From a virus (Duplodnaviria; Caudoviricetes), in the IMG/VR virus record IMGVR_UViG_3300028410_000746: a stretch of 64,000 bases of DNA. One strand, given 5' to 3'. This document shows positions 5,492 to 55,308 of the stretch, in pieces. How positions within the stretch are numbered: position 1 is the first letter of the stretch; each line of letters opens with the position of its first letter. A program made the translations under genes and the position numbers. Below the pieces are notes generated by a model, which was given only the letters and a program-made list of their open reading frames with translations, ran no database searches and was not told the origin of the DNA.

Positions 5492-5954
5492 GGTAGTCGT
5501 CCGTACGGTCGTCCACGAAGGGAGAGTCCACGAAGGTCACCTTGGGCGGCGAAGGACGGAGGACGTCCTCAGCGCGTGCGAGGCTAAAGGGCATCGTGGA
5601 GGCTGAGTCCGCCTGTGGAAGCGAGATCTGAGGTACCAGCGCAGCAGTGGGCGCAGCAGTGGGCGCCGCAGCGGGAGCTGCTGGACCAAAGATGGGCGTG
5701 GCCTGTGATCCACGGGCTCCCAGTCGACCTCGCATGATCTCGGCAAGAGGGCCCGAGAGCTTCTTGCCGAAGTTGTAGGCGAAGAGGACGAGCAGGATGT
5801 CGAACATCGTGTTCGGCACCGCCTTGGTGGCGGCCCAGAACCAGATGTGGGCTCCAAACACGACCCAGCACATGAGGCGGCCCATGCTCAACTCGTTATT
5901 CTCAATGAGGACGGCGCCCCACTTGACGGCTTTGATACGGTCCCACATGGTCAA
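5484..5954 (-). CDS. Holin-like membrane protein
   Basis: Two hydrophobic segments (LMCWVVFGAHIWFWAA; MFDILLVLFAYNFG) then a basic KK and a low-complexity tail. Confidence 0.5.
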   Translation of the reverse strand: MTMWDRIKAVKWGAVLIENNELSMGRLMCWVVFGAHIWFWAATKAVPNTMFDILLVLFAYNFGKKLSGPLAEIMRGRLGARGSQATPIFGPAAPAAAPTAAPTAALVPQISLPQADSASTMPFSLARAEDVLRPSPPKVTFVDSPFVDDRTDDYHE

Positions 5955-12543: not shown

Positions 12544-13179
12544 TCAGTAGAGGAGGGCGAGCGACCCGATGTAATAGCGCTGGCCGGGCGTGCTGTTCTC
12601 AAAGCGTACTCGGAGCTGATTGCCGGACCCCGCGAGTAGCTCAGGGGTCAGGTGTGTCACCTGAGTATACGTCGCGCCATCATCATTGGATACAAAAACA
12701 TCAACAAGGTCTGGCTCGACTCGCTGATAGACCACCTCGGAGGTGCGCGTGCCCGTTCGCGTGAGCGTGTACAGATCCCAGTACACCGCGAAGTCCTCGA
12801 AGAGGCCGTCCGCCGAGACGTCAATCGTATCCGTCTGCAAGCGTCCGTTCTGCGCCCCTACTGGATCATAAGCCGCCAGGAATGCCCTGTAGACACCAAC
12901 ACCTCCCATGATGTCCGGGTCCGTGAGGTCCCAGACGCCGGCCGTATCCAGCTCATCGAAGAAGATGTTGGTGTAGCGAGGCGCGAGCGCCAGCAACGCC
13001 GCGAACTTCTGATCTCTCAGCTCATCGGAGTCAAAAGGGACCACCGACTCGTCGATAGAGAGGTCGTCCGGGACGTCAACCACACGAAAGCCCTGGACAG
13101 ATACGCCCGTGAGGCGGGAGTAGCTGGCCTTGATTTGAGAGGTCGCGCGGTCAAGCAGGTAGAACGGCATGGCAATCAC
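12544..13179 (-). CDS. Putative virion structural protein
   Basis: 211-aa beta-rich ORF between tail genes. Confidence 0.55.
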   Translation of the reverse strand: MIAMPFYLLDRATSQIKASYSRLTGVSVQGFRVVDVPDDLSIDESVVPFDSDELRDQKFAALLALAPRYTNIFFDELDTAGVWDLTDPDIMGGVGVYRAFLAAYDPVGAQNGRLQTDTIDVSADGLFEDFAVYWDLYTLTRTGTRTSEVVYQRVEPDLVDVFVSNDDGATYTQVTHLTPELLAGSGNQLRVRFENSTPGQRYYIGSLALLY

Positions 13180-13206
13180 ACCCTGTAGAAAGAGGAGAAG
13201 GAACGA

Positions 13207-19542: not shown

Positions 19543-19554
19543 GAGAGGCTCCTA

Positions 19555-22131
19555 TCAGGTCAGGGGGTTGCCCTTGAGGCGGTAGACTGCGGCACAGGTG
19601 GTGTTGCTCGTATCAGCAAAGCCTACGCGGTTCTGAGCGCTCGCCTGCACGTAGTCAGCGACCACCACGAGCACAAGAGAGCCTTGACGTGCGAAGTCCG
19701 TCTCCTGCTCAATACGGCCGATGAAGGCGATGAACATCTTGTGCTCACTGATCGCAGACAGCGACTGGGCGAGGGCTGCCGGGCGATAAGCCGTCAGGTC
19801 CACGCTCGTGTAATGGTCAAGGAACTCGGCGTTCTCGGTGGTGACGTTGATCGGATCTCGGAAGGTGAACGACTCGACCGGGACCAGAGGCACCAGCGTG
19901 TTCAGCTCCACAAAGCCCGTCGTCGCGTCGAAGTCATCAATCGAGATGGGCCCCGGCGCGCTAAGCTCGGCCTCCGAATCATACGGAGCGTCCACGTGCA
20001 CCGGGATCTGAGCCATCGGCGCTTCGTACGGGTAACTCGTCAAAGGAGACCCGGACCCCGTAGTCCCCACGCGCATGCGGGGCGAGATCGCGAGAGGCTT
20101 GACCACCAAGTCGTTGTTGGGCGTGACGTTCTGGAGGAACTCGAACTGAATCGTCTGCACCGAATGCGTCAAGTAGTAGAGCGTGATCGGTGTACCGTTG
20201 GTCGAGAACGCGCGCGCCGGGAAGAACGTGACATCCACCTCCTCATCCGGATTGGGCAGGACGCCACTAATACCTACCTGACGTCCCGCCGTCCTCGACG
20301 CATCCACGACGTAGACCGGACCTCCGCCCGTACCCTGAACCGAGACCACACCATTGGTCGAACCTCCAGCCGCCTCATAGAGGAACTCAGGCAAGATCAC
20401 CGTGGTCGTGTCGCTGGCGAACACCGTGAGGGTCACGGCGGCGTCCGTCGTATAGGTTGCCGAAACCTCTCGATGCGGGCCGTCCTCATAGTCGACCTGG
20501 AGGTAGGGACGAATCGCCGCCTGCCCCGCTGCGTTGTTCGTGAAGACGACCCCAATTGCACCGTTGAAGGCGGTGGGGTCGTGCACCGTAGCCACGAAGT
20601 TCGAGGGCACGCCGTCAACGTGTGCGTTAAGCCCAGCTCCCACGGGGTAGAGGACCTCGAAGGTTACCCAAAGGTCTGCCGTCGATGCCACGGTAGGAGG
20701 CGCCCCCAGGGTCACCTCGACCGTCTGTGTACCCAGGCCCGTGATCTGCTCGAAGACGTAAGGCTGCGTGCCCGTCGTGGGGCCCGCCTCATTGAGGGTG
20801 ACCTCCAGGACATCTATGATCACCGTACCGGCCGGCTGCTCATCCGAGAGAGGCTGACCCAGGGTCGAGTTGGCGGTCAGGTCAAGGGCCACCGTATCTC
20901 CCGCCGTCCAGGTCCCGCCAGGAGGCGCAAAGACGACCACGTGCTGCTGCGCCACGGGTCGGTCCGAATAGATCGTACGGATACCGTCCGGAGAGCCGAA
21001 GGTGTTACCCGAAGACGGGTCCGACGGGATCGCCGTTGAGGGGATGAGGTCGTCAGCCTTGAGAACTTGCGTACCTGCCAGCTCCGAGCCTCCCACGTAG
21101 AAGCCCGTGCTCGCAGTGTTCGTGGCCCACGTACGCAGGTTGTGGTCCATCAAGAGGCCCAGTGAGCGTTCTACCTCGTGCCCAAGGTCAAACCCCGTAA
21201 ACGAGACGCGGTTTCGCATATCCTGGAGGTCACCAAAGACGACCTCATCAGAGTAGCGGCCATCCGGACGGTCTGGGGTCCCCGAGACGATCTGAGAGCC
21301 CCCGTTACCATTGCCCGTGAGGTCGAAGGGCTGCGTGTTGAGGCGGTAGACCAGGGTGATGGGGATCGAGTAAACGTAGCCATCGGTCGTGCCGAGAGCG
21401 TTTGCCGGGTCACCGTCTCCAGCGCGCCACAGTCCCGCATCACCATCTACCCCGGTGTACGCGAAGGCGGACAGGGCGCCCAGAGGACCCTGTGCAAAGA
21501 CGTTAGCGTCCGTGTAACCCAGCTTGTTTGCCGTGGAGGAGAGACGCTGTGAGGTGATCCTGTACTGAATCTGGACCCGACGTGTCGTCTCGGTGTTGAT
21601 CACGGGATCTGTATCAATCAGATCGTCTGTGAGCCACGTCGCAGCCAAGGCCTCAACGTTGCCGTTCGGGTAGACCTGAGTGGCGCTTGGCTTGTTGTCG
21701 GTCGAAGGATTGGGAGCGACCACCGCGCGCCATACCTCAAGATACACGAAGTCTACGGCAATGGTGCCCGCTGAAGCAGGAGGAGCTGCCAGCGTGATCA
21801 CGTTCTCGGAGGCGGTGTCCGTGCCCGTGTACTCCAGGGGGAGGACCCAGCCGTTGACGTGCACCACGGGGCGGTTGATCAGGTGCAGGGTGTTCGACTC
21901 GGTGCGGAAGTCAAAGGACGCGTTCGTGTCAGACTCGAAGTCTCCGGTCAAGAACCCCGAGGGGGTCTGCTGGCGGAGTACTTCGCGAGCCTTGTGCGAC
22001 GCGATGTCCTGGTTGAGAATCAGCTCGCTGTCGAGCACCCCCTTTCCCTTCTGGAAGACCACCACGTCATACCCCGTCCCCTCAGGGTCGAGGAATCGGC
22101 TCACGCCTGTGCCATAATCGTTATCAGCCAT
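19555..22131 (-). CDS. Baseplate/tail structural protein, paralog of 8076-12500
   Basis: Shared N-terminal motifs GVSR..VFQK...LDSEL, VNGW, FVYLEVW, ETTRRVQIQYR, GLWRAGDG, DGYVY.IP. Confidence 0.7.
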   Translation of the reverse strand: MADNDYGTGVSRFLDPEGTGYDVVVFQKGKGVLDSELILNQDIASHKAREVLRQQTPSGFLTGDFESDTNASFDFRTESNTLHLINRPVVHVNGWVLPLEYTGTDTASENVITLAAPPASAGTIAVDFVYLEVWRAVVAPNPSTDNKPSATQVYPNGNVEALAATWLTDDLIDTDPVINTETTRRVQIQYRITSQRLSSTANKLGYTDANVFAQGPLGALSAFAYTGVDGDAGLWRAGDGDPANALGTTDGYVYSIPITLVYRLNTQPFDLTGNGNGGSQIVSGTPDRPDGRYSDEVVFGDLQDMRNRVSFTGFDLGHEVERSLGLLMDHNLRTWATNTASTGFYVGGSELAGTQVLKADDLIPSTAIPSDPSSGNTFGSPDGIRTIYSDRPVAQQHVVVFAPPGGTWTAGDTVALDLTANSTLGQPLSDEQPAGTVIIDVLEVTLNEAGPTTGTQPYVFEQITGLGTQTVEVTLGAPPTVASTADLWVTFEVLYPVGAGLNAHVDGVPSNFVATVHDPTAFNGAIGVVFTNNAAGQAAIRPYLQVDYEDGPHREVSATYTTDAAVTLTVFASDTTTVILPEFLYEAAGGSTNGVVSVQGTGGGPVYVVDASRTAGRQVGISGVLPNPDEEVDVTFFPARAFSTNGTPITLYYLTHSVQTIQFEFLQNVTPNNDLVVKPLAISPRMRVGTTGSGSPLTSYPYEAPMAQIPVHVDAPYDSEAELSAPGPISIDDFDATTGFVELNTLVPLVPVESFTFRDPINVTTENAEFLDHYTSVDLTAYRPAALAQSLSAISEHKMFIAFIGRIEQETDFARQGSLVLVVVADYVQASAQNRVGFADTSNTTCAAVYRLKGNPLT

Positions 22132-22170
22132 GTGTCGTCACCCGTGTATCAGGACCATCAGAGGAGGGAA

Positions 22171-22821
22171 TCAAAACGTCAGCCGCCACGTCAGCGTGAG
22201 CCGCGCCGTGGCCGGCTTGTTGATCACGGGGAACGTCAGATAGTTGCACAACATATCACTCCCCGTCACGTCGACGGCCGCATCATACGCCCCGTTGGCC
22301 GGAAGGATCGGGTTGGTCACGGAGAGGTCCTCGTTTACGTCACCACCAATCAGCCCCATCTCCACGAGCGTACCGACCGCCTCACTTTGAGCGAACGTCG
22401 CCGTGAAGTCGATCACGTTGGTAGGGTAGAGAACCGGTGATCCGCCCGAATCTACAAAAGTCGTGGACGAGAAGGTCTTGCGTGACAGCTCCGAGTAGAG
22501 GGAGCGCTGCGTGTTCGTCTCGGCGGGAGGGTTCTGGAGATCCCAGCCCACATCTCCCGTGCCAATCGCCAGCGCGTAGATGCCGTGGCGGGGCTCCAGG
22601 GGGTTGACCGCCAACCGCGCCAGAAGAAGGCTCAGGTCGAGCGTGACCACGTTGTGCACCTCGAAGGTCTCCACGCGGCCGTCGTCATGCTCCAGGCGAA
22701 AGAACACATTTCCACGGATACCCTGCTTACGCTTGCCGAGGTATCGGTCCTCATAAAGAGAGCCGAGCGCGGACCGCGCCGAAGCGACCAGGGCACGGAG
22801 CTTGTCTTGGTAGGTGGGCAT
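22171..22821 (-). CDS. Baseplate/tail-associated protein
   Basis: Start MPTYQ at 22821; HNVVT...AIGTG...L.SEL.RK...F...EAVG.L.EMGL...INK....L.LTW.LTF pattern seen in large-myovirus tail genes. Confidence 0.6.
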   Translation of the reverse strand: MPTYQDKLRALVASARSALGSLYEDRYLGKRKQGIRGNVFFRLEHDDGRVETFEVHNVVTLDLSLLLARLAVNPLEPRHGIYALAIGTGDVGWDLQNPPAETNTQRSLYSELSRKTFSSTTFVDSGGSPVLYPTNVIDFTATFAQSEAVGTLVEMGLIGGDVNEDLSVTNPILPANGAYDAAVDVTGSDMLCNYLTFPVINKPATARLTLTWRLTF

Positions 22822-22839
22822 GGCGACAATGACCTCAAA

Positions 22840-22879
22840 TGTAAGAGACTCGGGGCGGTTACACTCCGAGTCTCTTACA
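22840..22879. other. Perfect 14-bp inverted repeat/hairpin
   Basis: TGTAAGAGACTCGG (22840-22853) and CCGAGTCTCTTACA (22866-22879), just upstream of the 22821 start. Confidence 0.8.
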
Positions 22880-22970
22880 AGTGAATTAGAGAAGCCCCTA
22901 CGCCGACGGCTCAAGCACCTCCGCGATACATTCGCAAAGGTCGTCACAGAAGACCGGCCCCCCGTCCTGC

Positions 22971-23364
22971 GGGAACATCCCCACGTGCGTGGGGAAGGGA
23001 CCTGATGCCCGCGCGTCATGATCTCGGCCACGGGGACATCCCCGCGTGTGCGGGGAAGGGTCGTGTGCCCCCTTCGCGAAGGTCTTTCCGACGGGGACAT
23101 CCCCGCGTACACGGGGAGGGGCTAGCGGCCTCACCCGCGCCCGTTGAATGGACGGGAACATCCCCGCGTGTGCGGGGAGGGGCTCTAGGATACTATGATA
23201 CTTCTTTTCAAAGTGGGAACATCCCCGCGTGTGCGGGGAGGGGGTGCCTGCGGCTCCCGCGAGGCTGACGAAGCTGGGGACATCCCCGCGTACACGGGGA
23301 GGGGGACGGCTCGACCGGGACAGCCTCCGGGACCGGGGGACATCCCCGCGTACACGGGGAGGGG
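22971..23364 (-). CRISPR. Type I-E-like CRISPR array 1: 7 repeats of 29 nt, 6 spacers (31 nt leader-proximal, then five of 32 nt); no cas genes
   Basis: Repeats at 22971, 23032, 23093, 23154, 23215, 23276, 23336; minus-strand consensus CCCYTCCCCRYRYACGYGGGGATGTYCCC with the TCCCC..GGGGA hairpin; 61-bp period. Confidence 0.97.
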
Positions 23365-23504
23365 TCTGTGCCAAGAAGTCACATGAGCGGAATCACGTAA
23401 GTATTCGGTTTTCAAAGACTTTCAGAGTCCAGTGCCAAACAAGGTCACCCTTGGGCGACACTCTCGACGTCCTTATGGTAACCTTGAGGGTGGAGGCGTG
23501 TCAA
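23365..23504 (-). promoter_or_regulatory. Leader and sigma70-type promoter of array 1
   Basis: TTGACA (23504-23499), 18 nt, TACCAT (23480-23475); leader homologous to 42499-42638. Confidence 0.8.
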
Positions 23505-23518
23505 GAGAAATCCCAAGC

Positions 23519-23848
23519 TCACAGCTTCCGAAGAATCGTACGTGAGGTCGCGTCCCCCACGATGGTACAAAGATCAAGCCCGACCCTCCTGAACGACCTC
23601 TGGATCTCATCGTCTGTGATGTTTTCAGGGAGCTTCCAGTCCATCTGGTCCCACATCACCTTCGAGATTTGAGCGCCTAGAGGAGTCTCCAGATCCTCTT
23701 CGCTACGGATCAGGGCGAGGTCCCCCATGAGCAACTCCAGACCTTCCTTATCGGTCTGATCTCCTGATGCCGTGTACGCGTCGTAGATGCTGGCGGCGGC
23801 GCAGTAGATGGGGTCCGTATACGTGGCGTTGGCGTAAACGTAGGACAT
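23519..23848 (-). CDS. Hypothetical protein
   Basis: AGGAG RBS, start MSYVYAN, own promoter. Confidence 0.6.
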   Translation of the reverse strand: MSYVYANATYTDPIYCAAASIYDAYTASGDQTDKEGLELLMGDLALIRSEEDLETPLGAQISKVMWDQMDWKLPENITDDEIQRSFRRVGLDLCTIVGDATSRTILRKL

Positions 23849-23885
23849 GTCGTATCTCCTGTAGTGTCGGATTGTCTTGCACACT

Positions 23886-24152
23886 CTATATACCACAAGC
23901 ATGGTGGTTCGTAAAAGCCATCACGCGTTGGTAGGTCTTTTGAACCTCCTCCACAAGCCTTCGACAGTAGGCTCTCTCAAGGTCAGCGTCGCTAGCCTCT
24001 GGAGGAAGATCCAAGGTCTCGTCGGACCGCAAGGCGGCGAGGAGGAGCTGGCTCGAAGGATTCTGCCTAATGTAGTGCTGGTAGAAGTCTCCAGGGACGT
24101 CGTGACTCCTCAGAGCTGCCAAGGCCTTCTTGTAGTTTTCAGAATCGGCCAT
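23886..24152 (-). CDS. Hypothetical protein
   Basis: 88-aa ORF with GGAG RBS; its TAG lies inside the next promoter. Confidence 0.5.
   Translation of the reverse strand: MADSENYKKALAALRSHDVPGDFYQHYIRQNPSSQLLLAALRSDETLDLPPEASDADLERAYCRRLVEEVQKTYQRVMAFTNHHACGI
23887..23915 (-). promoter_or_regulatory. Conserved phage promoter, copy 1
   Basis: TTTACG-N17(ending TGTGG)-TATATA. Confidence 0.7.
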
Positions 24153-24176
24153 CCTATACTCCCAGTCGCAAGGGGC

Positions 24177-24488
24177 TCAGTTACCGGCACGAGCGATGCG
24201 CCTATGGGCGAACTCCCAGGTGGGGCGGGTCACCCGAGGCATGAGGTCCTTTGCGGCGGCGAAAAACGCCTCGAAGGCCTCTTGCCCGGAACAGTTCAAC
24301 TCTATGTCGTGGTCTTCCCACAGCTCTTCGATGATGCTCTCTCCGAACTCAGATTGGGACAGACCCTCGCCGGGGTCGAGTCGCCAGTCCGAGCACATGG
24401 CGCGGAGCCCAACGTTGGCACTCCGGTCGCTTCCTCGCACGCCGAATGCGTGCTGTATCTTCTGGATCAATTCGGCTTGGTGGTTCAT
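24177..24488 (-). CDS. Hypothetical protein
   Basis: GAGGAG RBS, start MNHQAEL. Confidence 0.6.
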   Translation of the reverse strand: MNHQAELIQKIQHAFGVRGSDRSANVGLRAMCSDWRLDPGEGLSQSEFGESIIEELWEDHDIELNCSGQEAFEAFFAAAKDLMPRVTRPTWEFAHRRIARAGN

Positions 24489-24527
24489 GAGGTCTCCTCT
24501 CGGGTCGGTGTGTTGTCTTACACACTC

Positions 24528-24556
24528 TATATACCACAAGAGAGGTGGGAGGTAAA
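24528..24556 (-). promoter_or_regulatory. Conserved phage promoter, copy 2
   Basis: TTTACC-N17(TGTGG)-TATATA. Confidence 0.7.
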
Positions 24557-24576
24557 AAGAATCTCCCCCCGGACGT

Positions 24577-24972
24577 TCAGGCCTTGCGCCGCTCCATGGC
24601 CAGAACAGCCTCACGGTCGATGCGCTCGGACTGGCGGGCCTTGAGGTAGGCACGAGCGCGGGTCACCACTGCGAGGGTCGGGTGCTTCTTGCACGCGAAG
24701 AACAGGACCTCCACGATCACCGGGTCTTCGAGTCGCACGGTGTCGCACGCGTCGAGGACCGTCTTGGAGAGCATGAGCGTCACCAGATCCTCATCCAGGA
24801 CCTGAGGATCAAGGACCGCGCGAAGGCACAGCATCACCAGCTCACGGGGGTCTCCCAGGGCGAACTGTATCGTCGCCTCCGAGAAGTTCAAGGCGTCGGG
24901 CTTGACCATGCTCGACATGACGTCATGCAGGCTATCAGGAGAGAGGGATGCTTTGGCTCGGAGTAGTGCCAT
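24577..24972 (-). CDS. Hypothetical protein
   Basis: 131-aa helical ORF, GAGGA RBS. Confidence 0.55.
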   Translation of the reverse strand: MALLRAKASLSPDSLHDVMSSMVKPDALNFSEATIQFALGDPRELVMLCLRAVLDPQVLDEDLVTLMLSKTVLDACDTVRLEDPVIVEVLFFACKKHPTLAVVTRARAYLKARQSERIDREAVLAMERRKA

Positions 24973-25001
24973 GGGTACTTCCTCTTACTTGATTTGGTAG
25001 G

Positions 25002-25409
25002 TCAGGAGTTCTTGACAGCGGCTCGAATCAGCTTGCGCATGCCGACGACGCCCTTGATGCCCTTGCGACCGCGACACGCTGCGAAGAATCGCTCGACATG
25101 TACGGACCGGTCCTTCCCCTGCAAGGACGCACAGGCCTCGATCAAGACCTCATTGGTGAAGAGCCCCATGAGCACGGCCTGATCCGCATCCTCATCGCGC
25201 ATCAAACGCGTCGCCGCCTCCACAAGCTCCAGGGACGTCAGCTCGGGCAACGGTTGAAAGAGGTCAACCGTGCTGGTCAGAGTCTGTAGAGCTGCATGCA
25301 CCAGCGTGGCCGGAGACAGACCCGTCTTCTGCTGGAGCGAGGAGAGGAGTTGCTGCACCTCTGAGGGCAGCGTGAGAGAGACGAGAGGTTCTTTGGCAGA
25401 CATGGGCAA
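25002..25409 (-). CDS. Possible ribbon-helix-helix DNA-binding protein
   Basis: VSLTLPSEVQQLLSSLQQKTGLSPATLVHAAL resembles the CopG/RHH pattern; TTGACG-type promoter near 25476-25505. Confidence 0.5.
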   Translation of the reverse strand: MPMSAKEPLVSLTLPSEVQQLLSSLQQKTGLSPATLVHAALQTLTSTVDLFQPLPELTSLELVEAATRLMRDEDADQAVLMGLFTNEVLIEACASLQGKDRSVHVERFFAACRGRKGIKGVVGMRKLIRAAVKNS

Positions 25410-25510
25410 CTCACGGCTTGAGGGAGGTTCTCAAAGGGTATCTTGCTCGGGCGGTGACCCTGCAAGTGAGACTCCTTATAGAACGCTTTACTCAAGGCCG
25501 TCAAGTGCTA

Positions 25511-28500
25511 TTAGGGGAAGTTGACAGGAGTGGTAAAGTCGATGTTGGTGTCCACGCTCGTGATGCTGTTGGCCGTGAAGATCACGGAGTCGGGCTCTCC
25601 CACCTGCGCGACGGGAGCATTGAGCGTAGCCTTGAGGTTGTTCAGGAGACTCGATCCGTAGAAGTCCGAGTACACGCTCGCCCCTCCCGTGAGAGCTTCA
25701 TCCGTCACCGCACCCAGCGCATCCTCTTCGACCACCTCACACTCGACGAGGACGGCCGCGCTCAGGCACAGGAGGTTGGCTCCTGGAGTGTTGAGCACGG
25801 TGTCCACGTCATTCAGGTGCAGGATCTGCCCACGATGGCGAAGGTAGTCGTCCTGCTCCGGGATCGTGTAGACGTCCTCGTAGGGGTCCAGGAGGGCGAT
25901 GTCGCACAGGCTGTCACACGCTGCGGAGAGGAGCCCGGTAGTCCCGAGGACAGACTCGGAGCACAGATCAAGCGATGCCAGGAAGGCGTCCGCGTCCCGT
26001 CGAAAGACGACCGTAACGCCATCCTCCGTGATCGCATAATCACCGTTCCCCAGGAGACGGTCCAGCGGGTCGTTGAGCGTGTCGTCAAACTCCTCCGTCG
26101 CTGTGAACGTCGCTTGGTGGGTGAGCGCGAACGGAGGCGTCCCCTCTCCCAGGCGGATCACCGGGCGGTTGTTCTTGAGGTACGCCTTGGTGTACGGCTT
26201 GCGATGAAAGAGAGTGACCTTGAGCGCGGTCTCCAGGTCCGTCAGCGGAGTCGCGAGCGTGATCTCGTTGGTGTCGCGGTCATAGGTGAACGTATAGCTC
26301 GTGAGACCGTCCTGAGAGGTCACTGAGAGGATGCGGTCTGCAAACATGCCGACCTGACCCACCCGCAAGATCTGGGACGTGTAGGGCGTGATCTCGACGA
26401 TCTCCGGGTCCAGGTCCTCGGTCGGCTCGGGGGAGGTGAGCGTGTTGGACTGGTTGAGGTACGCGTGGGGTAGCGTGCGCTGGTCTTCCCGCTGATTCAC
26501 GATCTCGTAGCGTACGTAGTCCCACTGAGCCTCCGTGTAGGCCTGCGGGTCAAGCGTGCCGAACTGGATGTAGCCGAAGTCCGTGTCGACCCCCTCGCGG
26601 TCCGACCTCAGGGGCAAGTCGAGGTAGGGCACTGAGAGTGCCGGCGTTGCCGATCCTCCCAGGTACACGTCCACCGTCGACGTCGTGTGGACGCGGAGAC
26701 GGACCTCCAAGAATGAGCCAAAGAACTCCGCGTCCTCCACGTCGTACTGGCTGGCGTCGAGCAGCGAACCGGACCCGGTGAGCAGGCCTACCTGACGAGG
26801 CTCGTGTGCCGCCTGATGAGCCACGAAGTAGTCGACCTCAAAGGTGCCTTGGCCGTCCAGGACACCAAAGCGTGCCGAGACGTCTGCCGACCCTGAAGCC
26901 GGAGCAACGAGCACGTCAATCAATCCCAGGTACACGCCGTCCACAAAGACCGTGAGGTTATCGCCTGTACGGACCATCTTGACGTTCTGGAGGCCTTCAA
27001 CCTGCCAGTCATAGGTGAGGCCCACAACAGACCCACCGTCCAGTACAAGCGATCCTGCGCCGTCTACGAGTACGAGCTGAGGTGTGCCGTCGTCGTACGG
27101 GGCGAGGTAGATCTCAAACTCACCATCGTCCACGCCGAATCGCAACGGACACAGGCCGTCCACATCGAGCGTGTAGTCCAGAACAGAGAACCTCGTTTGG
27201 CATACCCAGTCGGTGATTGAGCCCTTGCCCACCTCTACCGCAGACGCATCCGCGAGCACGCCGTCATGCGTGATCCGCAAGCGATGGTCTAGGTACGACA
27301 GCTCGTTGGGATCAAACGTCGAGGTGAAGCCCGCGTCCTCCGGGCTCGTCACTCCGCCGTAGCCGTACAGGAACGCGTCTCCGATGATAGGTGCGTTGTA
27401 GCCGTTGAGGTAGCCCCTGGTCGCCAGGGAGATCGGGTTGACCTGCGACCAGAAGCCTTGAGTGAGCTTGGAGAGCGTATCCGCTCCCTGGAACTGCGCT
27501 GGGGTGCCTCCGTCGAAGAGGCTCACAACGGCCTCTCGGGTCGCGTCTGCCAGCGTCACCGTGGCAGCCAAGCCGCTCGCCCACGCGCTCACGCGCACGC
27601 GGAAGCTCACCTCGTACAGGTTGGATTCCTGGATGAACGGCTCAATGCGTACCCAGTTGTAGCCTCCACCCACAAGAGGTTGCCCGGCAGACTGCGACTG
27701 CACCAGTCCTCCTGCCAGCGTCCCCGCCCACCCCTGATTCTGTGAGACATACCAGGGGGGATCGTCCGCCTCCGGAAGCACCGTCATGTCTGTATCAACC
27801 GAGACCCGACGTGCGACCTCTCGCCCTTGAGCAGGCAGGACCGAGTATCGAACGAAGTCCCAGCCCGACTCATTGACCGCGCGGCGCGAGAGCGACCCGA
27901 AGAAGACTGAGTTCTGACGCAGGAGAGAGAAGATCTCCGGTGCCACGGCCGCGTCGACTTCAGCCACGCGAGCCAGGGCCGGTGCGAAGCCGAATCCAAA
28001 GACCTCCAGGTCTCCGGTCGGGCTCTTCGCGGCGCGGTAGGAGGTCAACTGCGTGAAATCCGCTTCCACGAAGAGGTTCACAGGCCCAAGAGAAGGGAAG
28101 GCCACATCAACGGTCACGTCGTACCCGTCGACCCCTTCGTCGTCGACGTCGAGGACCGTATAGATCACGCCCTCGCTCCAGATACGCGAGCCCACGATCA
28201 AGGGAGGCTCTCCCGTGAAGCGTAGGGACGTGTTGACTCCCAGGGGAGCCTCAACCGTTGCGGTCAAGCCGCTCCAGCTCTCCGCCAGGGTCTCATCCCC
28301 GGCTGACGTCAGCACTCCCACCGTACGGAAAGAGCCAGACAGCTCCAGGAAACCGGTCAGGTAGGCCCTCTCGGTGTCTGCCCAGCCCGCTCCGAGCCCC
28401 GTAAAGACTCCATCTGCCGTGTAGCTCAAGACACGCGTGCGCCAGTTGAGCGTTGAGGTCTGCTCAAAGGTCAGGTCGAGGACGCGGCGAAAGAGAGAGG

Positions 28501-29341
28501 CGAGCCCCTGAGAGTTGTCCACTCCTGTAGACACGTCCTCGATGATGTAGAGGCTGTCTGGCGAGGTGAACGCAGGCGCGCCGAGCGTGGGGCCCGTATA
28601 GGTGAAACCCTCCGGGTGGTCGTCACCCTCAAAGAACACGGCCGTGGGGAGCGTGTTTCGCTGGAACGGAGGCAAGGAGCCACGAAAAGACGGCTCGTTG
28701 AGCACGAGAGACGTGGGATCGTTCAGGACAGCGCTGTACTCATAGTCAAACGCCGTCCACTGGTGACCGATCACCTGCGGCTGGGGTGCTTCGTAGGGCG
28801 CCAGGACCGTCTGGAAGGGGAACGGGTGGCCTTGGGCGTTGGAGCCGTACTGGTTGAGCAGGTAGTTCGAGTTGTTGAGCGCTGCGAATGGGATGGTCGG
28901 GTTAGAGACGTAGCTGTAGTCGAGCAGGACCACATCCCCCGGATCAAGCAGGTCATCCAGGACGATGATACCGGCCACCGGGTCTACAGCGAAGACCACG
29001 ACCTCCACGCCATTGACCTGGACAGTCACGTCCTCGATGTCTGCAAGCTCACCGGAGCCGTCCCCCGTCGTCAAGGGGCCAAACTCGGTATAGATCAGCG
29101 TCGTCTCGAACGGCGTGATCGGCCCTCGGGAGATCAAGTACCCCGAGGTCGCCACGCTCATGAGGTCAACGTTCGCCCAGACACCACGTGTAGGCAGAGA
29201 GGACCCCAGGGGCCCCGCGTTGAAGACCTCAACCGGAATCAGGGCCGCGAGCCCGGAGTCGGTCGCGGAGATCTTGGCCGCCGCCCCTTGCGGATTTGGC
29301 CTACGGTGGACCGTAGGGAAACTAAACGTCAAATCACTCAC
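25511..29341 (-). CDS. Large virion structural (baseplate/tail) protein
   Basis: 1276 aa, acidic and beta-rich, with recurring LN..LLN motifs at both ends. Confidence 0.6.
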   Translation of the reverse strand: MSDLTFSFPTVHRRPNPQGAAAKISATDSGLAALIPVEVFNAGPLGSSLPTRGVWANVDLMSVATSGYLISRGPITPFETTLIYTEFGPLTTGDGSGELADIEDVTVQVNGVEVVVFAVDPVAGIIVLDDLLDPGDVVLLDYSYVSNPTIPFAALNNSNYLLNQYGSNAQGHPFPFQTVLAPYEAPQPQVIGHQWTAFDYEYSAVLNDPTSLVLNEPSFRGSLPPFQRNTLPTAVFFEGDDHPEGFTYTGPTLGAPAFTSPDSLYIIEDVSTGVDNSQGLASLFRRVLDLTFEQTSTLNWRTRVLSYTADGVFTGLGAGWADTERAYLTGFLELSGSFRTVGVLTSAGDETLAESWSGLTATVEAPLGVNTSLRFTGEPPLIVGSRIWSEGVIYTVLDVDDEGVDGYDVTVDVAFPSLGPVNLFVEADFTQLTSYRAAKSPTGDLEVFGFGFAPALARVAEVDAAVAPEIFSLLRQNSVFFGSLSRRAVNESGWDFVRYSVLPAQGREVARRVSVDTDMTVLPEADDPPWYVSQNQGWAGTLAGGLVQSQSAGQPLVGGGYNWVRIEPFIQESNLYEVSFRVRVSAWASGLAATVTLADATREAVVSLFDGGTPAQFQGADTLSKLTQGFWSQVNPISLATRGYLNGYNAPIIGDAFLYGYGGVTSPEDAGFTSTFDPNELSYLDHRLRITHDGVLADASAVEVGKGSITDWVCQTRFSVLDYTLDVDGLCPLRFGVDDGEFEIYLAPYDDGTPQLVLVDGAGSLVLDGGSVVGLTYDWQVEGLQNVKMVRTGDNLTVFVDGVYLGLIDVLVAPASGSADVSARFGVLDGQGTFEVDYFVAHQAAHEPRQVGLLTGSGSLLDASQYDVEDAEFFGSFLEVRLRVHTTSTVDVYLGGSATPALSVPYLDLPLRSDREGVDTDFGYIQFGTLDPQAYTEAQWDYVRYEIVNQREDQRTLPHAYLNQSNTLTSPEPTEDLDPEIVEITPYTSQILRVGQVGMFADRILSVTSQDGLTSYTFTYDRDTNEITLATPLTDLETALKVTLFHRKPYTKAYLKNNRPVIRLGEGTPPFALTHQATFTATEEFDDTLNDPLDRLLGNGDYAITEDGVTVVFRRDADAFLASLDLCSESVLGTTGLLSAACDSLCDIALLDPYEDVYTIPEQDDYLRHRGQILHLNDVDTVLNTPGANLLCLSAAVLVECEVVEEDALGAVTDEALTGGASVYSDFYGSSLLNNLKATLNAPVAQVGEPDSVIFTANSITSVDTNIDFTTPVNFP

Positions 29342-30426
29342 GGCTCACGTACCATCGTGTAAGAGGTCAACTGGTTGTCGGGATTGTAGACCGCCACGAT
29401 CGTGTAGGTCTCCGAGACGTTGGTATCCGCCAGCACGTCGGCCCTTGAGGGGTACAGTCTCACCGTCGCCCCCGTCAAGTTGTTGCTGCCGTCGTACGTC
29501 TGCCCCGTCAAGCTGAAGTTCTCATGGGTGAGTCCCAGGATGCGCGTCGTCGCCTCCGTGATCGCATCCACCTTCCCATCAAGGGCCGTGACGTCACCCT
29601 GAAGCGTCGTCACGTCCGTAGTCAGCGTCCCAACGTTCGTAGTCAGCGTGCTGACGTCTGTTGAGATCGCGGCTACGTCCGTTGAGAGCGTCCCCAGGTC
29701 CGTACCGGTGTTGGCACTCAAGACCTGCAAGGAGTCTGTGAGCGTATCAAAGCCCGCGCCTTGGATGTCCGTGACCTCCAGCGCGAGAGCATCGACCTTC
29801 CCATCGGTCGTGGCGATGTCCAGAAGAGCCGTGTCGACGTTGCCGTCCACGACTGCGAGATCTGAGGTCAGAGTGTCGACCTTGCCGTCCGTGGTCGCAA
29901 GGTTCGTGAGGACTGTATCGACCTTGCCGTCCGTAGTCGCAATGTCCGTGAGGACCGTAGCGATGTCCGTGAGGACCGTATCGACCTTACCATCGGTAGT
30001 CGCGAGGTCAGTGAGGAGGGTATCAACGTTGGCATCCACGACCGCAAGATCGGTGAGGACCGTATCGACCTTACCATCCGTGGTCGCAACCTGAGCGCTC
30101 ACGTCGTCCAGGACGTTGGCGGCGATGCTCGCGGAGAGGTTGTACTGGTCGAAGGTGCCCAGAGCCAGAGGGTCCTTGAAGGAGATCACCAGGAGGCCGA
30201 GCGTGTCGGTCTCCCCGGCTCCCAGATCCACGGCGTAAATCCCCGGCATGTTGGCCGCGCTCAGCTCCGTGAAGTTGAGACCCGTCAAAGCAAACGCAGC
30301 CGGGACGCCTCCGTCCTTGGATACGTAGGCCTCCACGTCTGTGTCGGTGAGCCCCGTTACAGACGTGCCGCCTGCTGCCAGAATGATCACCACAGTCGCG
30401 GCGGTGGATTGCTTAAGCTGAAGCAT
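29338..30426 (-). CDS. Fibre-like virion protein with coiled-coil repeats
   Basis: Tandem (T)TDGKVDTVLTDLA 14-aa repeats; N- and C-terminal domains shared with 30444-33917. Confidence 0.65.
   Translation of the reverse strand: MLQLKQSTAATVVIILAAGGTSVTGLTDTDVEAYVSKDGGVPAAFALTGLNFTELSAANMPGIYAVDLGAGETDTLGLLVISFKDPLALGTFDQYNLSASIAANVLDDVSAQVATTDGKVDTVLTDLAVVDANVDTLLTDLATTDGKVDTVLTDIATVLTDIATTDGKVDTVLTNLATTDGKVDTLTSDLAVVDGNVDTALLDIATTDGKVDALALEVTDIQGAGFDTLTDSLQVLSANTGTDLGTLSTDVAAISTDVSTLTTNVGTLTTDVTTLQGDVTALDGKVDAITEATTRILGLTHENFSLTGQTYDGSNNLTGATVRLYPSRADVLADTNVSETYTIVAVYNPDNQLTSYTMVREP
29781..30088. repeat. Degenerate 42-nt coding tandem repeat
   Basis: Recurring TCGACCTTRCCRTCSGTRGTCGC units encoding ATTDGKVD. 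Confidence 0.8.
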
Positions 30427-30443
30427 AGAGGCTCCTCAAGAGT

Positions 30444-33400
30444 TCAGGCGCGGCGGATAGAGTAATCATCGAGTCGGTTGGACACGTCATACACAGCCTC
30501 AAGTACGTAGGAGGCGATCGCGTTCGTCTCGTTGGCCACGTCTACAGCGGTGGGATAGGTGCGGATCGTGGCACCGATGAGGTTACCTGAGCCATCATAC
30601 GCGTGGTCCGTGATCCTAATGTTCTCCTGGCTGAGTCCCAGGATGCGAGTAATGAGGATCTGAATCTCCCCAAGGTCCGTCGAGATCGCCCCAACGTCCG
30701 TGGTCAGGGTCCCAACGTCCGTGGTCAGCGTTCCCACATCGGTTGAGATCGTTCCTACCTCCGTGGTCAGCGTCCCCACATCCGTGGAGAGCGTCCCCAC
30801 GTCTGTTGAGATCGCCGTCACATCACCCTGAACGGCGGTGAGGTCCGTCTGAACCGTCCCCACATCCGTGGAGAGCGTCGAGATCGCCGTGGACTGCGTG
30901 TCCGCGCCGTCACTCAGGATCTTGAGCGAGTCTGTCGCCGTGTTGAAGCCCGCACCCTGTATGTCCGTCAAGGCGTCCGTAACGGGGGAAAGATCCACCG
31001 CAGCACCTGACGTGACCCGATAGCGCAGGGTCACGGGATCTATCGCCGCCGAGAGTGCGTCAATGCGCAGGATGTAGACGTCACCATCGGACTGTCCCGT
31101 GGCCCATAGCACTCCGTTGGCGCCATCAATCGAGTCCAGATCCGCGACGGGAGGTCCTGCCGTGATCGCATCCACTACGCCCGAAGACTGCCACGTCGTG
31201 CCGCCATCCTGCGTATACAAGACCACCCCCGCAGCTCCCACGACCCACGCCTGCGTGGTCGACACCGCGATCACCCCGTTGAGGGTAGTCGCCACTCCGG
31301 AGGTTTGAGCGCTGAAGCTCGCGCCTCCGTCCACCGTCTTGAAGATCTGCCCGTTCTGCCCCACGACCCAACCCGTCAAGGTACCAGACACGAAGTCCAC
31401 GTCGGTAAGAATGTCTGTGGTTGGCATGGGGACTGTCGCCCACGACGCACCCGAGTCATCACTGCGAATCGCGAATCCGTCCGTGGTGCCATCGTTACCA
31501 ACTGCCAGGATGGTCCCGGAGAGCTGAGCATCAATGCCCGTGAAGAACTGGCCGAAGGAACCCAAATCCCCTTCATTGTAGAGCACGACCTGGAGGTTCG
31601 CATTCACCGTTCGATCGACGACGACCACGTTACCTCCCGCGACTCCATAGAAGAGCTGCGTAGAGGGCGCGGCCATGTCTCGAATTGACGCGAAGACCGC
31701 AAACGAATCCTCCGTGGCGAGATCAAAGTTAGCTCCTGCGTCGTCTGAGAACGAAATGTAAGGCTGGCCCGAGTCCTCCCCGCCTACCAGGAGGAAGTCC
31801 GTACCAGGGACACCCTGAACACAACGGTCCGTGAAGTTGACCCCCCCAAGGCTTGTCCAGGCCGTACCGCCATTGATAGTCGAGATAACCTCTCCACCTC
31901 CAAAGCCGTTGCCCCTCGCGATGTACGCGACCGTATTGGAGACCGCGTACACGCCATTGCCTGAATCCTCCACGCCCCCAGGATCGGACTGCTGCTCCGC
32001 GTTCGTGATCGCCAGACCTCCAGCTCGAAGATCAAGCACGAGGTCTCCCGCGACGTTCGTATCCCCCACGCCCAAGGTGACGGAGTACCAACCGGGAAGC
32101 GCCGCGTCGTCCAGCTCCGTCAACGTCGTGTTGACCGTGTTGACCGCCGAAGCCCCCGCCTTGAACAGAAGGCTCGTGAGGGCGGACCCGCTTACGCCCG
32201 TGTTCGGCTCCCCGTCTCGGGAGAGGTAGAGCGTAGACACGTGCTCAGTCTCAATATCCAGGACGTACCCAGGACGCTGACGAGACAGCTCCGCTCGGAG
32301 CGTGCCGATCACCGTATCAAGGGCGCTTGCCGGCTCCAGCTCCACCCACAACCTCGCCGCGTCGAAGTCTGCCGCCTGCTTACCCAGCTCCAGCCTGTCA
32401 CCTGTGTTCGCTTGCGGCAAGAAGACCGCCGAGTCTGCCACGTACGTGTCCTGAATCGTCAGGCCAATCGCGGCCGCCTCAGGAGGTACGCTAAAGGTCG
32501 CGCCCGCGTCATTGGTGTAAATGAGCGTACCCGACTCGCCCACCACATACGCCTCAGTCGCGCTGACCATGTGCACGCCGGTCAAGGCCTGAACCGTGCC
32601 CGTGTTGGCCGTCACGTCCGTCCAGTTGTCTCCAGTATCGGTCGTGTAGATCACCGTTCCGTTGTCGCCCACCGCGAATCCCGAACCCGAACCCGGAAAC
32701 AGATGCACGGCTCGAAGGCCGTCAACAGCCGGGAGGACTGAGGGTGCAACCAGAGCGAACCCTCCCGTAGCGCGCCGGACATACGCTGCGCCGCCGCCCG
32801 TCTCCCCAACCAGCACGATCGAGTTGGAGGTAGGCACGTCCACGTCATAGACCTCAATACCCACGTGCGTCGAGCTGGCGGACAAGATCGGGGAGAAGAA
32901 CGCCCCCTGATAGAGAATCCCATCGCCCCCGGCAGTCTGGCCGATCACGAAGAAGGCCGTACCTCCCGGCTGAACCGCACAACGCCGCGTCGTCGTGAGG
33001 GTCGCGGGAGCAAAGAAATCAACAGCCTCCGTCCAGGTCTCCCCGCCGTCTTCCGTGTAGTACGCAAATCCCAGGTCGCCGTTTGACTCCCACGCCGCGA
33101 CCACGATGCGGTCCGGATCTTCTACGTCACCAGCTACACCAGAAGGCCTCTTCGTGAAGCCGCCACCCGATCGAAACTCGATGTTGGTGAAGGTATCCCC
33201 ACGGTCCGACGAGAAGGCCACCTGATCCGTATCAAAGAAGTCCGTCACCCAGACGTCCACGGCATTGCGCGTACGGGAAGCCGCCCACACCGACGTTGCC
33301 GAGGTCAACGAGTAGCCAAGGTCCACCAGATCACGTGGGATCGGGTTCAGTGGCCGCACCTGCGTCACGACCGTTCCCGGCTCCTGCGTGAAGGCATCCC

Positions 33401-41466: not shown

Positions 41467-41961
41467 CTACTCATCGTCAGTCTCCGAGGGGGCATGTTCG
41501 GCACACCGTCGACTGAACCAGCTACCCTCATAGACACCCTCGGCGCCCATCTTACCACAGACCTGACAGGTGACGTGACTCACACGCTCCGCAAGGTCCA
41601 CGTAGTGGTCTACCTTGTTAGGCCCATTCATGGTGTAGAACCGCAGCTCGCCCCACTTCTCCTTGACCTGCATGACCACGAAGCCCTCGAAGGGATCGGT
41701 GGGGTACTGCGCAAAGTAGCGCTCAATCCACTCGCAGTCTGCAAGCTCTCCCACGGTGGTGACCCCTTGTTTGACGAAGAGATCGTCGCGGATGTCACAC
41801 ACCTCCGGCCACCTCTTGGCAGCGTGCGAGATCTGATCCAGCAAGGCCTCCACGAGAGGCTCCCAGCCCTCGGGGACGCTGAAGTCAAACGCATCTTTGA
41901 GAAAGGCATGTTTTGCGAACATGCGCTCCCACCACTTCTTCTCTTCTGAACTGTCACTCAT
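41467..41961 (-). CDS. Conserved phage hypothetical protein with C-terminal zinc ribbon
   Basis: QVKEKWGELRFY...TCQVCG...W..RRC..H; GGAG RBS; true start 41961 because the upstream ORF extension is CRISPR sequence. Confidence 0.7.
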   Translation of the reverse strand: MSDSSEEKKWWERMFAKHAFLKDAFDFSVPEGWEPLVEALLDQISHAAKRWPEVCDIRDDLFVKQGVTTVGELADCEWIERYFAQYPTDPFEGFVVMQVKEKWGELRFYTMNGPNKVDHYVDLAERVSHVTCQVCGKMGAEGVYEGSWFSRRCAEHAPSETDDE

Positions 41962-41978: not shown

Positions 41979-42068
41979 GGGGACATCCCCGCTCGCGCGG
42001 GGAACACCGCAGGTAGTGGGCCTCGTCGCAGATGATGACCGGAACATCCCCGCTCGCGCGGGGAACAC
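41979..42068 (-). CRISPR. Type I-E mini-array 2: 2 repeats, one 32-nt spacer
   Basis: Leader-proximal repeat GTGTTCCCCGCGCGAGCGGGGATGTTCCG (42068-42040), close to the E. coli I-E repeat; trailer repeat 42007-41979; spacer 42008-42039. Confidence 0.93.
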
Positions 42069-42089
42069 TCTTCAAATGTTCAGTATACC

Positions 42090-42102
42090 TAACTCCTTGA
42101 TT
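42090..42102 (-). promoter_or_regulatory. IHF consensus site in the array-2 leader
   Basis: AATCAAGGAGTTA is an exact WATCAANNNNTTR match, 21 nt from the first repeat. Confidence 0.7.
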
Positions 42103-42191
42103 CATAAGAGGAATCCTGTTGGCATAGGGTGCGTCGGTTTACTTTACCAAATCGTACCCTGTGGTACAAGCTCCCAAGAGCGACTAAGCGG

Positions 42192-42221
42192 ACCTTACTA
42201 CAAGCTCTCTCCGGCTGTCAA
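42192..42221 (-). promoter_or_regulatory. Sigma70-type promoter of array 2
   Basis: TTGACA-N18-TAAGGT. Confidence 0.65.
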
Positions 42222-42345
42222 GAGGTTTGCAGCTCTTTCCACATGCGGTACATGTGGGCGCGGATGCGGTCATAAGAGTCCGTGTCGCCTTTTTGAGCGA
42301 TGCCGCGACCCTGGAGCGTGAGGAACACCTCTCCAAAAGCCTCAT

Positions 42346-42498
42346 GGGGACATCCCCGCGTACACGGGGAAGGGGTCCAGGTCAGGCACACGGGCCGTAC
42401 GGGAGTGGGGACATCCCCGCGTACACGGGGAAGGGTGCTACTAGACTCCGGGGTGCATGGCGGTGCGCAGGGGACATCCCCGCGTACACGGGGAAGGG
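42346..42498 (-). CRISPR. Type I-E mini-array 3: 3 identical repeats, 2 spacers (34 and 32 nt)
   Basis: CCCTTCCCCGTGTACGCGGGGATGTCCCC at 42346-42374, 42407-42435, 42470-42498. Confidence 0.95.
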
Positions 42499-42638
42499 TC
42501 TGTGCCAAGAAGTCACAGGGTAGGGAACACGTAAGTATTCGGTTTTCAAAGACTTTCAGGGTTCAGTGTCAAAGAGCGTCACCCTTGGGCGACCTCTCCG
42601 ACGTCCTTATGGTAACCACACCTAAGAGGGCCTGTCAA
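42499..42638 (-). promoter_or_regulatory. Leader and promoter of array 3 (homolog of the array-1 leader)
   Basis: TTGACA (42638-42633), 18 nt, TACCAT (42614-42609); same 140-bp geometry as 23365-23504. Confidence 0.8.
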
Positions 42639-43171
42639 GCGCCGCGCAACGGTCGAAACGTCAAGTTGATGCGAGGCTCAGAGACACGGGCACGCTTGGG
42701 GAGGCTGTGCTCCCACTCGCGCTGAGTCCCCGCAGGCATGACGAGAAGGCTGCCGTCCGTGAGCGCGAAGGAGAGCTTCTCCTTGTGGTCCACCTTGCGG
42801 CGCATCTTGAAGTCTCGGGCAGCTCCAAACGACAGGGAGGCGATCACCGGGTCATCCCCGAACAGCGGCTCATCGTCCGCGTGCCAGCCAATGCGGTCCG
42901 AGCCGTCCCGGTAGAGGTTGGCCAGCATCGTGGGGAGCTTGCAACCCACATGAGCCTCGACCTTCTCCTGGAGCGACTTGAGGAGAGCAGAAGGAAGCTC
43001 CCGAGCCCCCCACTGTAGGTTGGAGTACGTGTAAGAGACCGGACCGTACCACGCAGTCAAGCGAGGCTGTGGGTGCTCTTTGCCGTAGACCACAATCATG
43101 CGCTGTTCAAAGGCGAGCAGACTGCGCAGCTCCTCGAAATCCATCTCCACGAACTGCTCTATCAATTCCAT
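42635..43171 (-). CDS. alkB: AlkB-family 2OG-Fe(II) oxygenase (ALKBH2/3-like)
   Basis: QPRLTAWYG, NLYRDGSDRIGWHADDE (HxD), IASLSFGAARDF, GSLLVM, WEHSLPK, RINLTFR. Confidence 0.92.
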   Translation of the reverse strand: MELIEQFVEMDFEELRSLLAFEQRMIVVYGKEHPQPRLTAWYGPVSYTYSNLQWGARELPSALLKSLQEKVEAHVGCKLPTMLANLYRDGSDRIGWHADDEPLFGDDPVIASLSFGAARDFKMRRKVDHKEKLSFALTDGSLLVMPAGTQREWEHSLPKRARVSEPRINLTFRPLRGA

Positions 43172-43227
43172 CACGGTGCTCCAGGGCAAAGGGTGATGAG
43201 CTACCCTAGCCCGAAGAGAGCGTAAAG

Positions 43228-43602
43228 TCAACCGGCAGACAGCACCAAGCGCCAGATCGTCCACGCACACAGGAGGTGGTACGTGTTGTCGACGATGATC
43301 ACGGACCACGGCCCCATGTTGTCACGGAACCCCGTCTGACCTGCCTTACCCATCCAGGCGGCGGCGAGACGGTAGCGGTCGACCGGGTAGTGCGTGGCCC
43401 AAATGGCAGCGTAGGCCCACCACGGCCAGACATCCCCCATGACCCAGGTGAAGCAGACAAACATCAACGTATAGAGCGTCACATGCACCAGACACGCTGC
43501 CGTGCCCTCCCAGGTACGTGCGCTCTTGTTCTGCGCCATCCAGTCGTTCTGGTAGACGTAATCACCCACGAGGTGAACCAGAATAAGAGTACCCATATCC
43601 AT
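43228..43602 (-). CDS. DUF3307-family membrane protein
   Basis: HLVGDYVYQNDWMA..K...HVTLY...THYPVD...DNTYH motifs. Confidence 0.8.
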   Translation of the reverse strand: MDMGTLILVHLVGDYVYQNDWMAQNKSARTWEGTAACLVHVTLYTLMFVCFTWVMGDVWPWWAYAAIWATHYPVDRYRLAAAWMGKAGQTGFRDNMGPWSVIIVDNTYHLLCAWTIWRLVLSAG

Positions 43603-43982: not shown

Positions 43983-44011
43983 AGGGACATCCCCGCGCGT
44001 GCGGGGAAGGG
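43983..44011 (-). CRISPR. Solitary type I-E repeat unit 1 with its own promoter
   Basis: CCCTTCCCCGCACGCGCGGGGATGTCCCT; no second repeat at +/-61 bp. Confidence 0.85.
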
Positions 44012-55279: not shown

Positions 55280-55308
55280 GGGACCATCCCCATGTGCGTG
55301 GGGAATCG
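55280..55308 (-). CRISPR. Solitary type I-E repeat unit 2
   Basis: CGATTCCCCACGCACATGGGGATGGTCCC; no partner repeat nearby. Confidence 0.7.

Follow-up and report, generated by a model that had tools for sequence, protein, structure and literature searches.

A one-spacer type I-E mini-array in a phage genome with a perfect match to a phage-type helicase gene of another genome

Compact CRISPR arrays have been described in huge phages, in systems that lack Cas1 and Cas2 and whose spacers are directed against genes of other phages (Al-Shayeb et al. 2020, PMC7162821). Mini-arrays of archaeal viruses also target other viruses and are presented as weapons of inter-viral conflict (Medvedeva et al. 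2019, PMC6858448). The DNA analysed here, a stretch of 64 kb referred to as the window, carries three arrays, one of which, array 2, has a single spacer (Table 1). Like the huge phages of Al-Shayeb et al. (PMC7162821), it has a short array and belongs to a clade with interference genes and without adaptation genes, and its spacer hits a replication gene of another phage. It is unlike them in that array 2, a one-spacer I-E unit, precedes an ordinary gene and, judging from synteny with a complete relative, is separated by ~80 kb from the cas genes, and in that its exact, PAM-flanked match falls within the intein-bearing helicase of an uncultured phage of ~43 kb. With the archaeal-virus mini-arrays of one or two spacers (PMC6858448), array 2 shares its small size, its location in a virus and its aim at another virus. 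It is a clear natural example of an already known use of CRISPR by one phage against another, and no new mechanism is involved. The archaeal viruses reportedly have no cas genes, use the type I systems of their hosts and target close relatives; unlike these, the clade of array 2 comes equipped with a Cascade and a Cas3 of its own, and its spacer is directed at an unrelated phage.

In its architecture, array 2 resembles the I-E arrays of E. coli K-12 (Swarts et al. 2012, PMC3338789), with which it shares a 29-nt repeat, a 7-bp stem, a 32-nt spacer and an AAG PAM whose final base is also the one that closes the repeat. Unlike canonical bacterial I-E arrays, it is phage-borne, has a single spacer and no adjacent cas genes, belongs to a clade without cas1/cas2 and has a leader unrelated to the bacterial leaders tested. 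RNA anti-CRISPRs are likewise phage-encoded copies of CRISPR repeats, those of type I-E included (Camara-Wilpert et al. 2023, PMC10651486); array 2 is unlike them in that its two repeats enclose a complete spacer for which a real target exists, and is a guide and not a bare mimic. The value of the finding lies in the identification of both target and PAM. Most spacers of huge-phage arrays have no known target, and this one gives a perfect, PAM-flanked match that ties a huge phage to a specific rival of ~43 kb, supplies a working PAM (AAG) for the unusual I-E system of that phage and provides a concrete crRNA/target pair open to laboratory testing. It also supports the view that phage systems without cas1/cas2 act against competing phages.

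Anatomy and surroundings of array 2

Array 2 is a genuine type I-E mini-array, made of leader, repeat, 32-nt spacer and repeat. Its repeat period is 61 nt, and both repeats fold into a 7-bp stem with a 4-nt loop, followed by the handle, as in I-E repeats. All the marks of the subtype are thus present, i.e. a repeat of ~29 nt, a GC-rich 7-bp stem, a tetraloop, an 8-nt handle and a 32-nt spacer. The two repeats differ at position 26 and at the last base: the leader-proximal repeat ends in ...ATGTTCCG, its final G matching the G of the AAG PAM of the target (see below), while the 3' end of the terminal repeat is ...ATGTCCCC. The original prediction had read the spacer, on the crRNA strand, as the helicase peptide VIICDEAHYL(R). 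This reading was confirmed by a six-frame scan of the window, which located ...VIICDEAHYLR... at 42027 on the minus strand, and by an in-frame helicase open reading frame in the target, in the frame of which the spacer encodes VIICDEAHYL(R). No second copy of the spacer with ≤3 mismatches was found in the 64-kb window.

Table 1 Features of the window, of the target contigs, of the complete relative G001 and of the bacterial genomes that carry the array-2 repeat.
Feature	Sequence	Position	Strand	Details
Array 2, whole unit	Window	41979-42068	-	Two repeats and one spacer, type I-E
Array 2 leader	Window	42069-42221	-	AT-richer; own leader
Array 2 leader-proximal repeat	Window	42068-42040	-	GTGTTCCCCGCGCGAGCGGGGATGTTCCG, 29 nt
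Array 2 spacer (guide)	Window	42039-42008	-	GTCATCATCTGCGACGAGGCCCACTACCTGCG, 32 nt
Array 2 terminal repeat	Window	42007-41979	-	GTGTTCCCCGCGCGAGCGGGGATGTCCCC
164-aa gene	Window	41467-41961	-	ATG 17 nt past terminal repeat; GGAG ribosome-binding site between
Array 1	Window	22971-23364	-	Seven repeats, six spacers; leader resembles that of array 3
Array 3	Window	42346-42498	-	Three repeats of variant CCCTTCCCCGTGTACGCGGGGATGTCCCC, two spacers; promoter-like site 42638-42609
Solitary repeat	Window	43983-44011	-	Own promoter-like site 44055-44027
Solitary I-E-like repeat	Window	55280-55308	-	CGATTCCCCACGCACATGGGGATGGTCCC; stem of CCCCAC/GTGGGG type, also present in G001 arrays
AlkB-like 2OG-Fe(II) oxygenase gene	Window	42635-43180	-	Auxiliary gene around arrays
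DUF3307 membrane protein gene	Window	43228-43602	-	Auxiliary gene around arrays
PTH2-type peptidyl-tRNA hydrolase domain protein gene	Window	46824-47594	-	Auxiliary gene around arrays
Histidine kinase gene	Window	5951-7120	-	Auxiliary gene around arrays
Protospacer	L001 (Ga0307974_1005924, 8,622 bp)	6963-6994	+	
Protospacer	L002 (Ga0307983_1001124, 12,145 bp)	10148-10179	-	
Target helicase ORF	L001	5598-8288		896 codons, 859 from likely ATG (P0003)
Target helicase ORF	L002	8854-11544	-	As in L001
Cas7e	G001	18,289-19,527		
Cas6e	G001	17,075-17,713		
Cas3 core	G001	20,354-21,412		Within 904-aa frame
Exact array-2 repeat	Gordonia sp. MAG			Loci L049/L058, and one copy in L071 (same contig)
Exact array-2 repeat	Pseudoclavibacter sp. 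MAG			Locus L026

Within the leader of array 2, a TTGACA box was observed at 42221-42216 (minus strand), and a consensus promoter scan called no full -35/-10 promoter for the array. On the other side, the 164-aa gene is probably co-transcribed with array 2, as judged from the sequence. Homologues of its C-terminal part were found in huge phages, no Pfam family matched it, and a search of the array-2 region against Rfam gave no match. The record LR756508.1, which encodes a homologue of the 164-aa gene, was considered and set aside, as there are no repeats beside the homologue and no Cas7e in the whole record. Directly after the last repeat of array 3, the minus strand contains a frame of ~40 codons without an obvious start (42218-42345; ...EAFGEVFLTLQGRG...KELQTS), the stop of which overlaps the TTGACA box of the array-2 leader.

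The window has a GC content of 60.8%, and its genes lie largely on the minus strand, which is also shared by arrays 1, 2 and 3 and by the solitary repeats. It contains tail-like proteins and homologues of huge-phage proteins; no relatives were found among INPHARED phages at megablast level, and no Cas proteins among the ~40 open reading frames scanned. Arrays 1 and 3 have a variant repeat, CCCYTCCCCG....GCGGGGATGTYCCC, with identical hairpin geometry and with 8 of 28 positions unlike array 2, and the 5' handle of array 2, ATGTTCC, recurs in array 1. When arrays 1-3 were compared with INPHARED, nothing was retrieved except I-E repeats of E. coli and Salmonella. For the other eight spacers of the window no target was found. 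Arrays 1 and 3 together have ten repeats, each with a final C; these repeats start with CCCYT, vs GTGTT in array 2 and in the arrays of G001. One spacer of array 1 (23214-23183) has a GC content of ~31%, vs 59-74% for the others.

Given these solitary repeats, we considered whether the repeats of array 2 could act as RNA decoys, i.e. as Racr-like RNA anti-CRISPRs that soak up Cas6e or Cascade of a host I-E system, with the spacer being incidental. Some phages are known to carry mimics of I-E repeats by which I-E systems are inhibited (PMC10651486), and the array-2 repeat is identical to bacterial I-E repeats, as would suit a mimic, as would the presence of two solitary repeats in the same window. 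Racrs, however, are solitary repeats without a working guide, whereas array 2 has two repeats enclosing a full-length 32-nt spacer with a perfect PAM-flanked target, and the clade has interference genes of its own. Together, these features make a decoy function very improbable, and in what follows we treat array 2 as the source of a guide.

The protospacer and the phage that carries it

To find the protospacer, we scanned JGI metagenome contigs with the spacer after replacing every codon third position by N. This wobble-degenerate scan returned exactly two contigs, L001 and L002, both of them with a perfect 32/32 match. By BLAST, the identity grows to 33/33, because the G before the protospacer is also the last base of the leader-proximal repeat. 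In both contigs, which come from two samples, the protospacer is preceded by AAG, so that the I-E PAM called for by the original prediction is indeed in place. According to the I-E rule, AAG is the consensus PAM and its last base is carried into the repeat (PMC3338789; PMC3764190). Neither an exact nor a wobble-degenerate protospacer was found in IMG/VR, and none was found in the GTDB species genomes; against INPHARED, the spacer gave only partial, motif-level matches, mostly in helicase genes, and L002 gave no match. The spacer reads in the same sense as the helicase transcript. A crRNA made from it would thus base-pair with the template strand of the DNA, not with the transcript, in keeping with a DNA-targeting type I system.

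Since high-GC helicases share much of their motif DNA, the specificity of the match was controlled by comparing the spacer with 80 homologous viral loci. Even the best of these 80 departs from the spacer by 4 mismatches, and in place of AAG there is GAC or some other triplet in the flank. Among the sequences compared, only the L001/L002 lineage offers a perfect match with the PAM beside it.

In both contigs the protospacer lies in frame within a large open reading frame, where it reads RPK-VIICDEAHYLR-SSD. The encoded protein, P0003, is an SF2 helicase that matches ResIII and phrog_62, with the DEAH motif at the protospacer and SGT later. A best match outside helicase genes, which would have spoken against the original prediction, was thus not obtained; and because the same frame is present in a real helicase gene elsewhere, the helicase reading of the spacer is to be preferred over chance resemblance.

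The contigs L001 and L002 have 3.6 kb in common (99.5% identity), beyond which they continue on opposite sides. Besides the helicase, the combined region of ~17 kb contains a DUF5906 primase-like gene, an open reading frame of 602 aa and a gene for a family A DNA polymerase that includes a 3'-5' exonuclease domain. An identical helicase protein was found on 15 contigs, the longest of 42.9 kb. Relatives of this helicase family number 333 on IMG/VR viral contigs; a search of 72,556 plasmids returned none. For comparison, 80 IMG/VR loci on contigs of ~7 to 93 kb were kept, and one relative resides in a complete tailed phage of 48.5 kb, which has the same helicase-PolA order together with capsid, terminase and baseplate genes. 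The target gene thus sits in a phage-type replication module. The target DNA has a GC content of 70% and a GC3 of 83-95%, compared with 58.8-62.8% GC in 8-kb stretches of the window and a GC3 of 74-81%, and L001 and L002 have no similarity to the window besides the 33 bases. This different base composition and the fact that nothing is shared but 33 bases indicate that the target is a different, smaller phage. From the contigs, then, the target is a phage-type helicase in another genome, that of a phage of ~43 kb and 70% GC, in agreement with the prediction that the DEAH-box helicase gene would lie in a different genome (70% vs 61% GC).

The same data bear on whether the guide might instead be directed at a second helicase elsewhere in the carrier genome, which it would regulate or mark. 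Regulatory roles have been proposed for phage arrays (PMC7162821), and the carrier sequence examined consists of the 64-kb window only. The SNF2 protein of the window (1487-3202, minus strand) was tried as a homologue of the target helicase and rejected: its motif II reads VLWLDEVAAVK, and BLASTP detected no homology, which bears out the original remark that this gene does not match the spacer. The base composition of the target contigs is beyond the range of the window, and they share no other similarity with it; the complete relative G001, described below, encodes no homologue of the target helicase family and has no match to the spacer at ≤3 mismatches; and an intact Cas3 system would cut, not regulate, a perfect AAG-flanked match. 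A self-directed guide is for these reasons hardly credible. Hence the other outcome named in advance as adverse, a second helicase of the carrier's own, was encountered neither in the window nor in G001. In addition, the eight other spacers of the window and 39 spacers of G001 (those from the portions of G001 read) were compared with L001/L002, the 80 helicase-family viral loci and the window, and gave no match.

Supply of Cas proteins and origin of the guide

A complete relative, G001 (IMGVR_UViG_3300021978_000001), measures 437,490 bp, has terminal repeats and carries a completeness rating of 100%. Positions 1-48,281 of the window are collinear with 60,903-116,525 of G001 at 65-74% nucleotide identity, and the SNF2 protein of the window is 73% identical to a G001 protein in the best aligned segment. 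This collinearity with a complete 437-kb IMG/VR genome places array 2 in a phage genome. G001 encodes Cas7e, Cas6e and a Cas3 core (Table 1), and neither Cas1 nor I-E Cas2 was detected in it. The I-E-type repeats of G001 number 59, are spread over many arrays and share a single strand. Starting with GTGTT and variable in their last base, they belong to the GTGTTCCCCGCG...GGGGATGGTCC type, and similar repeats adjoin Cas7e, Cas6e and Cas3. Our first reading of the GTGTT-type repeat of array 2 as foreign to the phage was withdrawn, G001's own arrays being of the GTGTT type. At the G001 sites syntenic to window arrays 1, 2 and 3 there is no array; conversely, the interval between the AlkB-like gene and the homologue of a 535-aa gene, which holds the solitary repeat 43983-44011 in the window, is occupied by a 5-repeat array in G001. 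Thus, array content turns over within the clade, and array 2 is not conserved.

Within single arrays of G001 (13164-31211, 110458-110730 and 405003-408652), repeats differ in both stem and loop, and the stems vary with matching changes on the two sides (CCCCGC...GCGGGG vs CCCCAC...GTGGGG). In bacterial arrays, unlike those of G001, the repeats are near-identical. The variation in G001 suggests an unusual evolution of arrays in a genome without Cas1/Cas2.

Bacterial counterparts were sought by scanning 185,579 species genomes with the repeat core. The exact 28-nt repeat of array 2 was found only in MAGs of Gordonia sp. and Pseudoclavibacter sp. In both (L049 and L026), the array lies directly downstream of cas7e-cas5e-cas6e-cas1e-cas2e, in the orientation assumed for array 2. 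An identical repeat beside complete I-E cas operons fixes the subtype and the crRNA strand of array 2. The last repeat base varies in these bacterial arrays (C, G, T), as expected if it derives from the PAM. As a pointer to the host, this exact sharing of the repeat with two I-E systems of actinobacteria is weak. No IMG/VR contigs were found to carry the window's repeat core, and no spacer against the target or the window was present in the bacterial loci with similar repeats. A 28/31 match at L085 sits in coding DNA and was judged to be due to chance. Comparison of the array-2 leader with the bacterial leaders that accompany the same repeat revealed nothing significant in common except the junction GAAGAG. 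Owing to this dissimilarity, direct capture from a host array could not be demonstrated.

We consider it likely that array 2 is a phage-borne I-E mini-array with a crRNA against the helicase gene of a different phage, for Cascade-Cas3 attack in co-infection. The array would be transcribed, possibly together with the downstream 164-aa gene, and Cas6e would cut the transcript at both repeat hairpins to yield one crRNA with the handle AUGUUCCG. This crRNA would then join Cascade, most likely the phage's own, since the clade carries Cas7e, Cas6e and Cas3. Since the repeat of array 2 departs from that of arrays 1 and 3 and no strong promoter was called for it, its compatibility with the phage's Cas6e and Cascade is an assumption. 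Right beside the AAG PAM, the crRNA would base-pair with the helicase gene on its template strand, and Cas3 would degrade the DNA of the rival phage when both phages infect the same cell. The sequences themselves show the anatomy of the array, the exact target with its PAM, the identity of this target as a phage-type helicase of another genome and the cas content of a complete relative; the expression and processing of the array, the choice of Cascade, a shared host and the actual interference are inferred.

As to the origin of the spacer, it would have been captured by the Cas1-Cas2 complex of a host I-E system, either straight into the array of the phage or by way of a host array subsequently taken up by the phage. 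Such a capture is probable because the clade is without cas1/cas2 and the spacer bears the signature of I-E integration (AAG, with the G of the PAM retained as the final base of the repeat). More generally, a phage clade that lacks cas1/cas2 might obtain its guides from the I-E adaptation complex of its host; the exact repeat, found only in the two actinobacterial systems, would then point to an Actinomycetota host common to both phages. We regard this as possible rather than likely and offer it tentatively; if true, it would be a case of a phage acquiring spacers in trans, or by piracy.

Alternatively, the unit may be a relic or passenger, taken from a bacterial I-E array or from an ancestor and left unused, in which case the match would record a past encounter between a host and a phage. 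Consistent with this, the repeat is identical to bacterial I-E repeats and unlike window arrays 1 and 3, array 2 has a single spacer, no consensus promoter was called for it, and the array is missing at the syntenic site of G001. Several features speak against disuse: both repeats and their hairpins are intact, the handle ATGTTCC is also found in array 1, GTGTT-type repeats are the norm in the arrays of the clade, and the protospacer with its PAM is still perfect in two environmental samples. A relic is on these grounds unlikely, and we favour a guide in use against the phage of L001 and L002.

The target site within its gene

The peptide PKVIICDEAHYLR is kept exactly in helicase relatives at 47-70% identity, and DE.H is almost invariant across the family. 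In I-E systems, changes in the PAM or in the seed permit escape from interference. The PAM is itself a Lys codon, so that AAG to AAA would be silent, and position 3 of the seed falls on the wobble base of a codon for Val; where the target has this Lys, Asp (GAC) is found in more distant relatives. Silent escape mutations in the PAM or seed would thus seem to be available to the target phage. The original description of the target as a conserved, hard-to-mutate site therefore holds for the conserved peptide and not for the DNA: because synonymous PAM or seed changes would allow escape, the site is conserved at the protein level only. Selection for conserved sites cannot be demonstrated by one spacer.

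The helicase gene of the target has further peculiarities. A 273-aa intein interrupts its P-loop, exactly within Walker A, and GVGAGK|T is restored upon removal of the intein. The intein contains a LAGLIDADG domain, its first residue is Ala, not Cys/Ser, and it ends with HN before Thr. It is missing from the closest relatives of the helicase (61-70% identity, 591-601 aa). Two overlapping direct repeats of 55 bp, at 5585-5670 of L001, immediately precede the likely start codon of the helicase.
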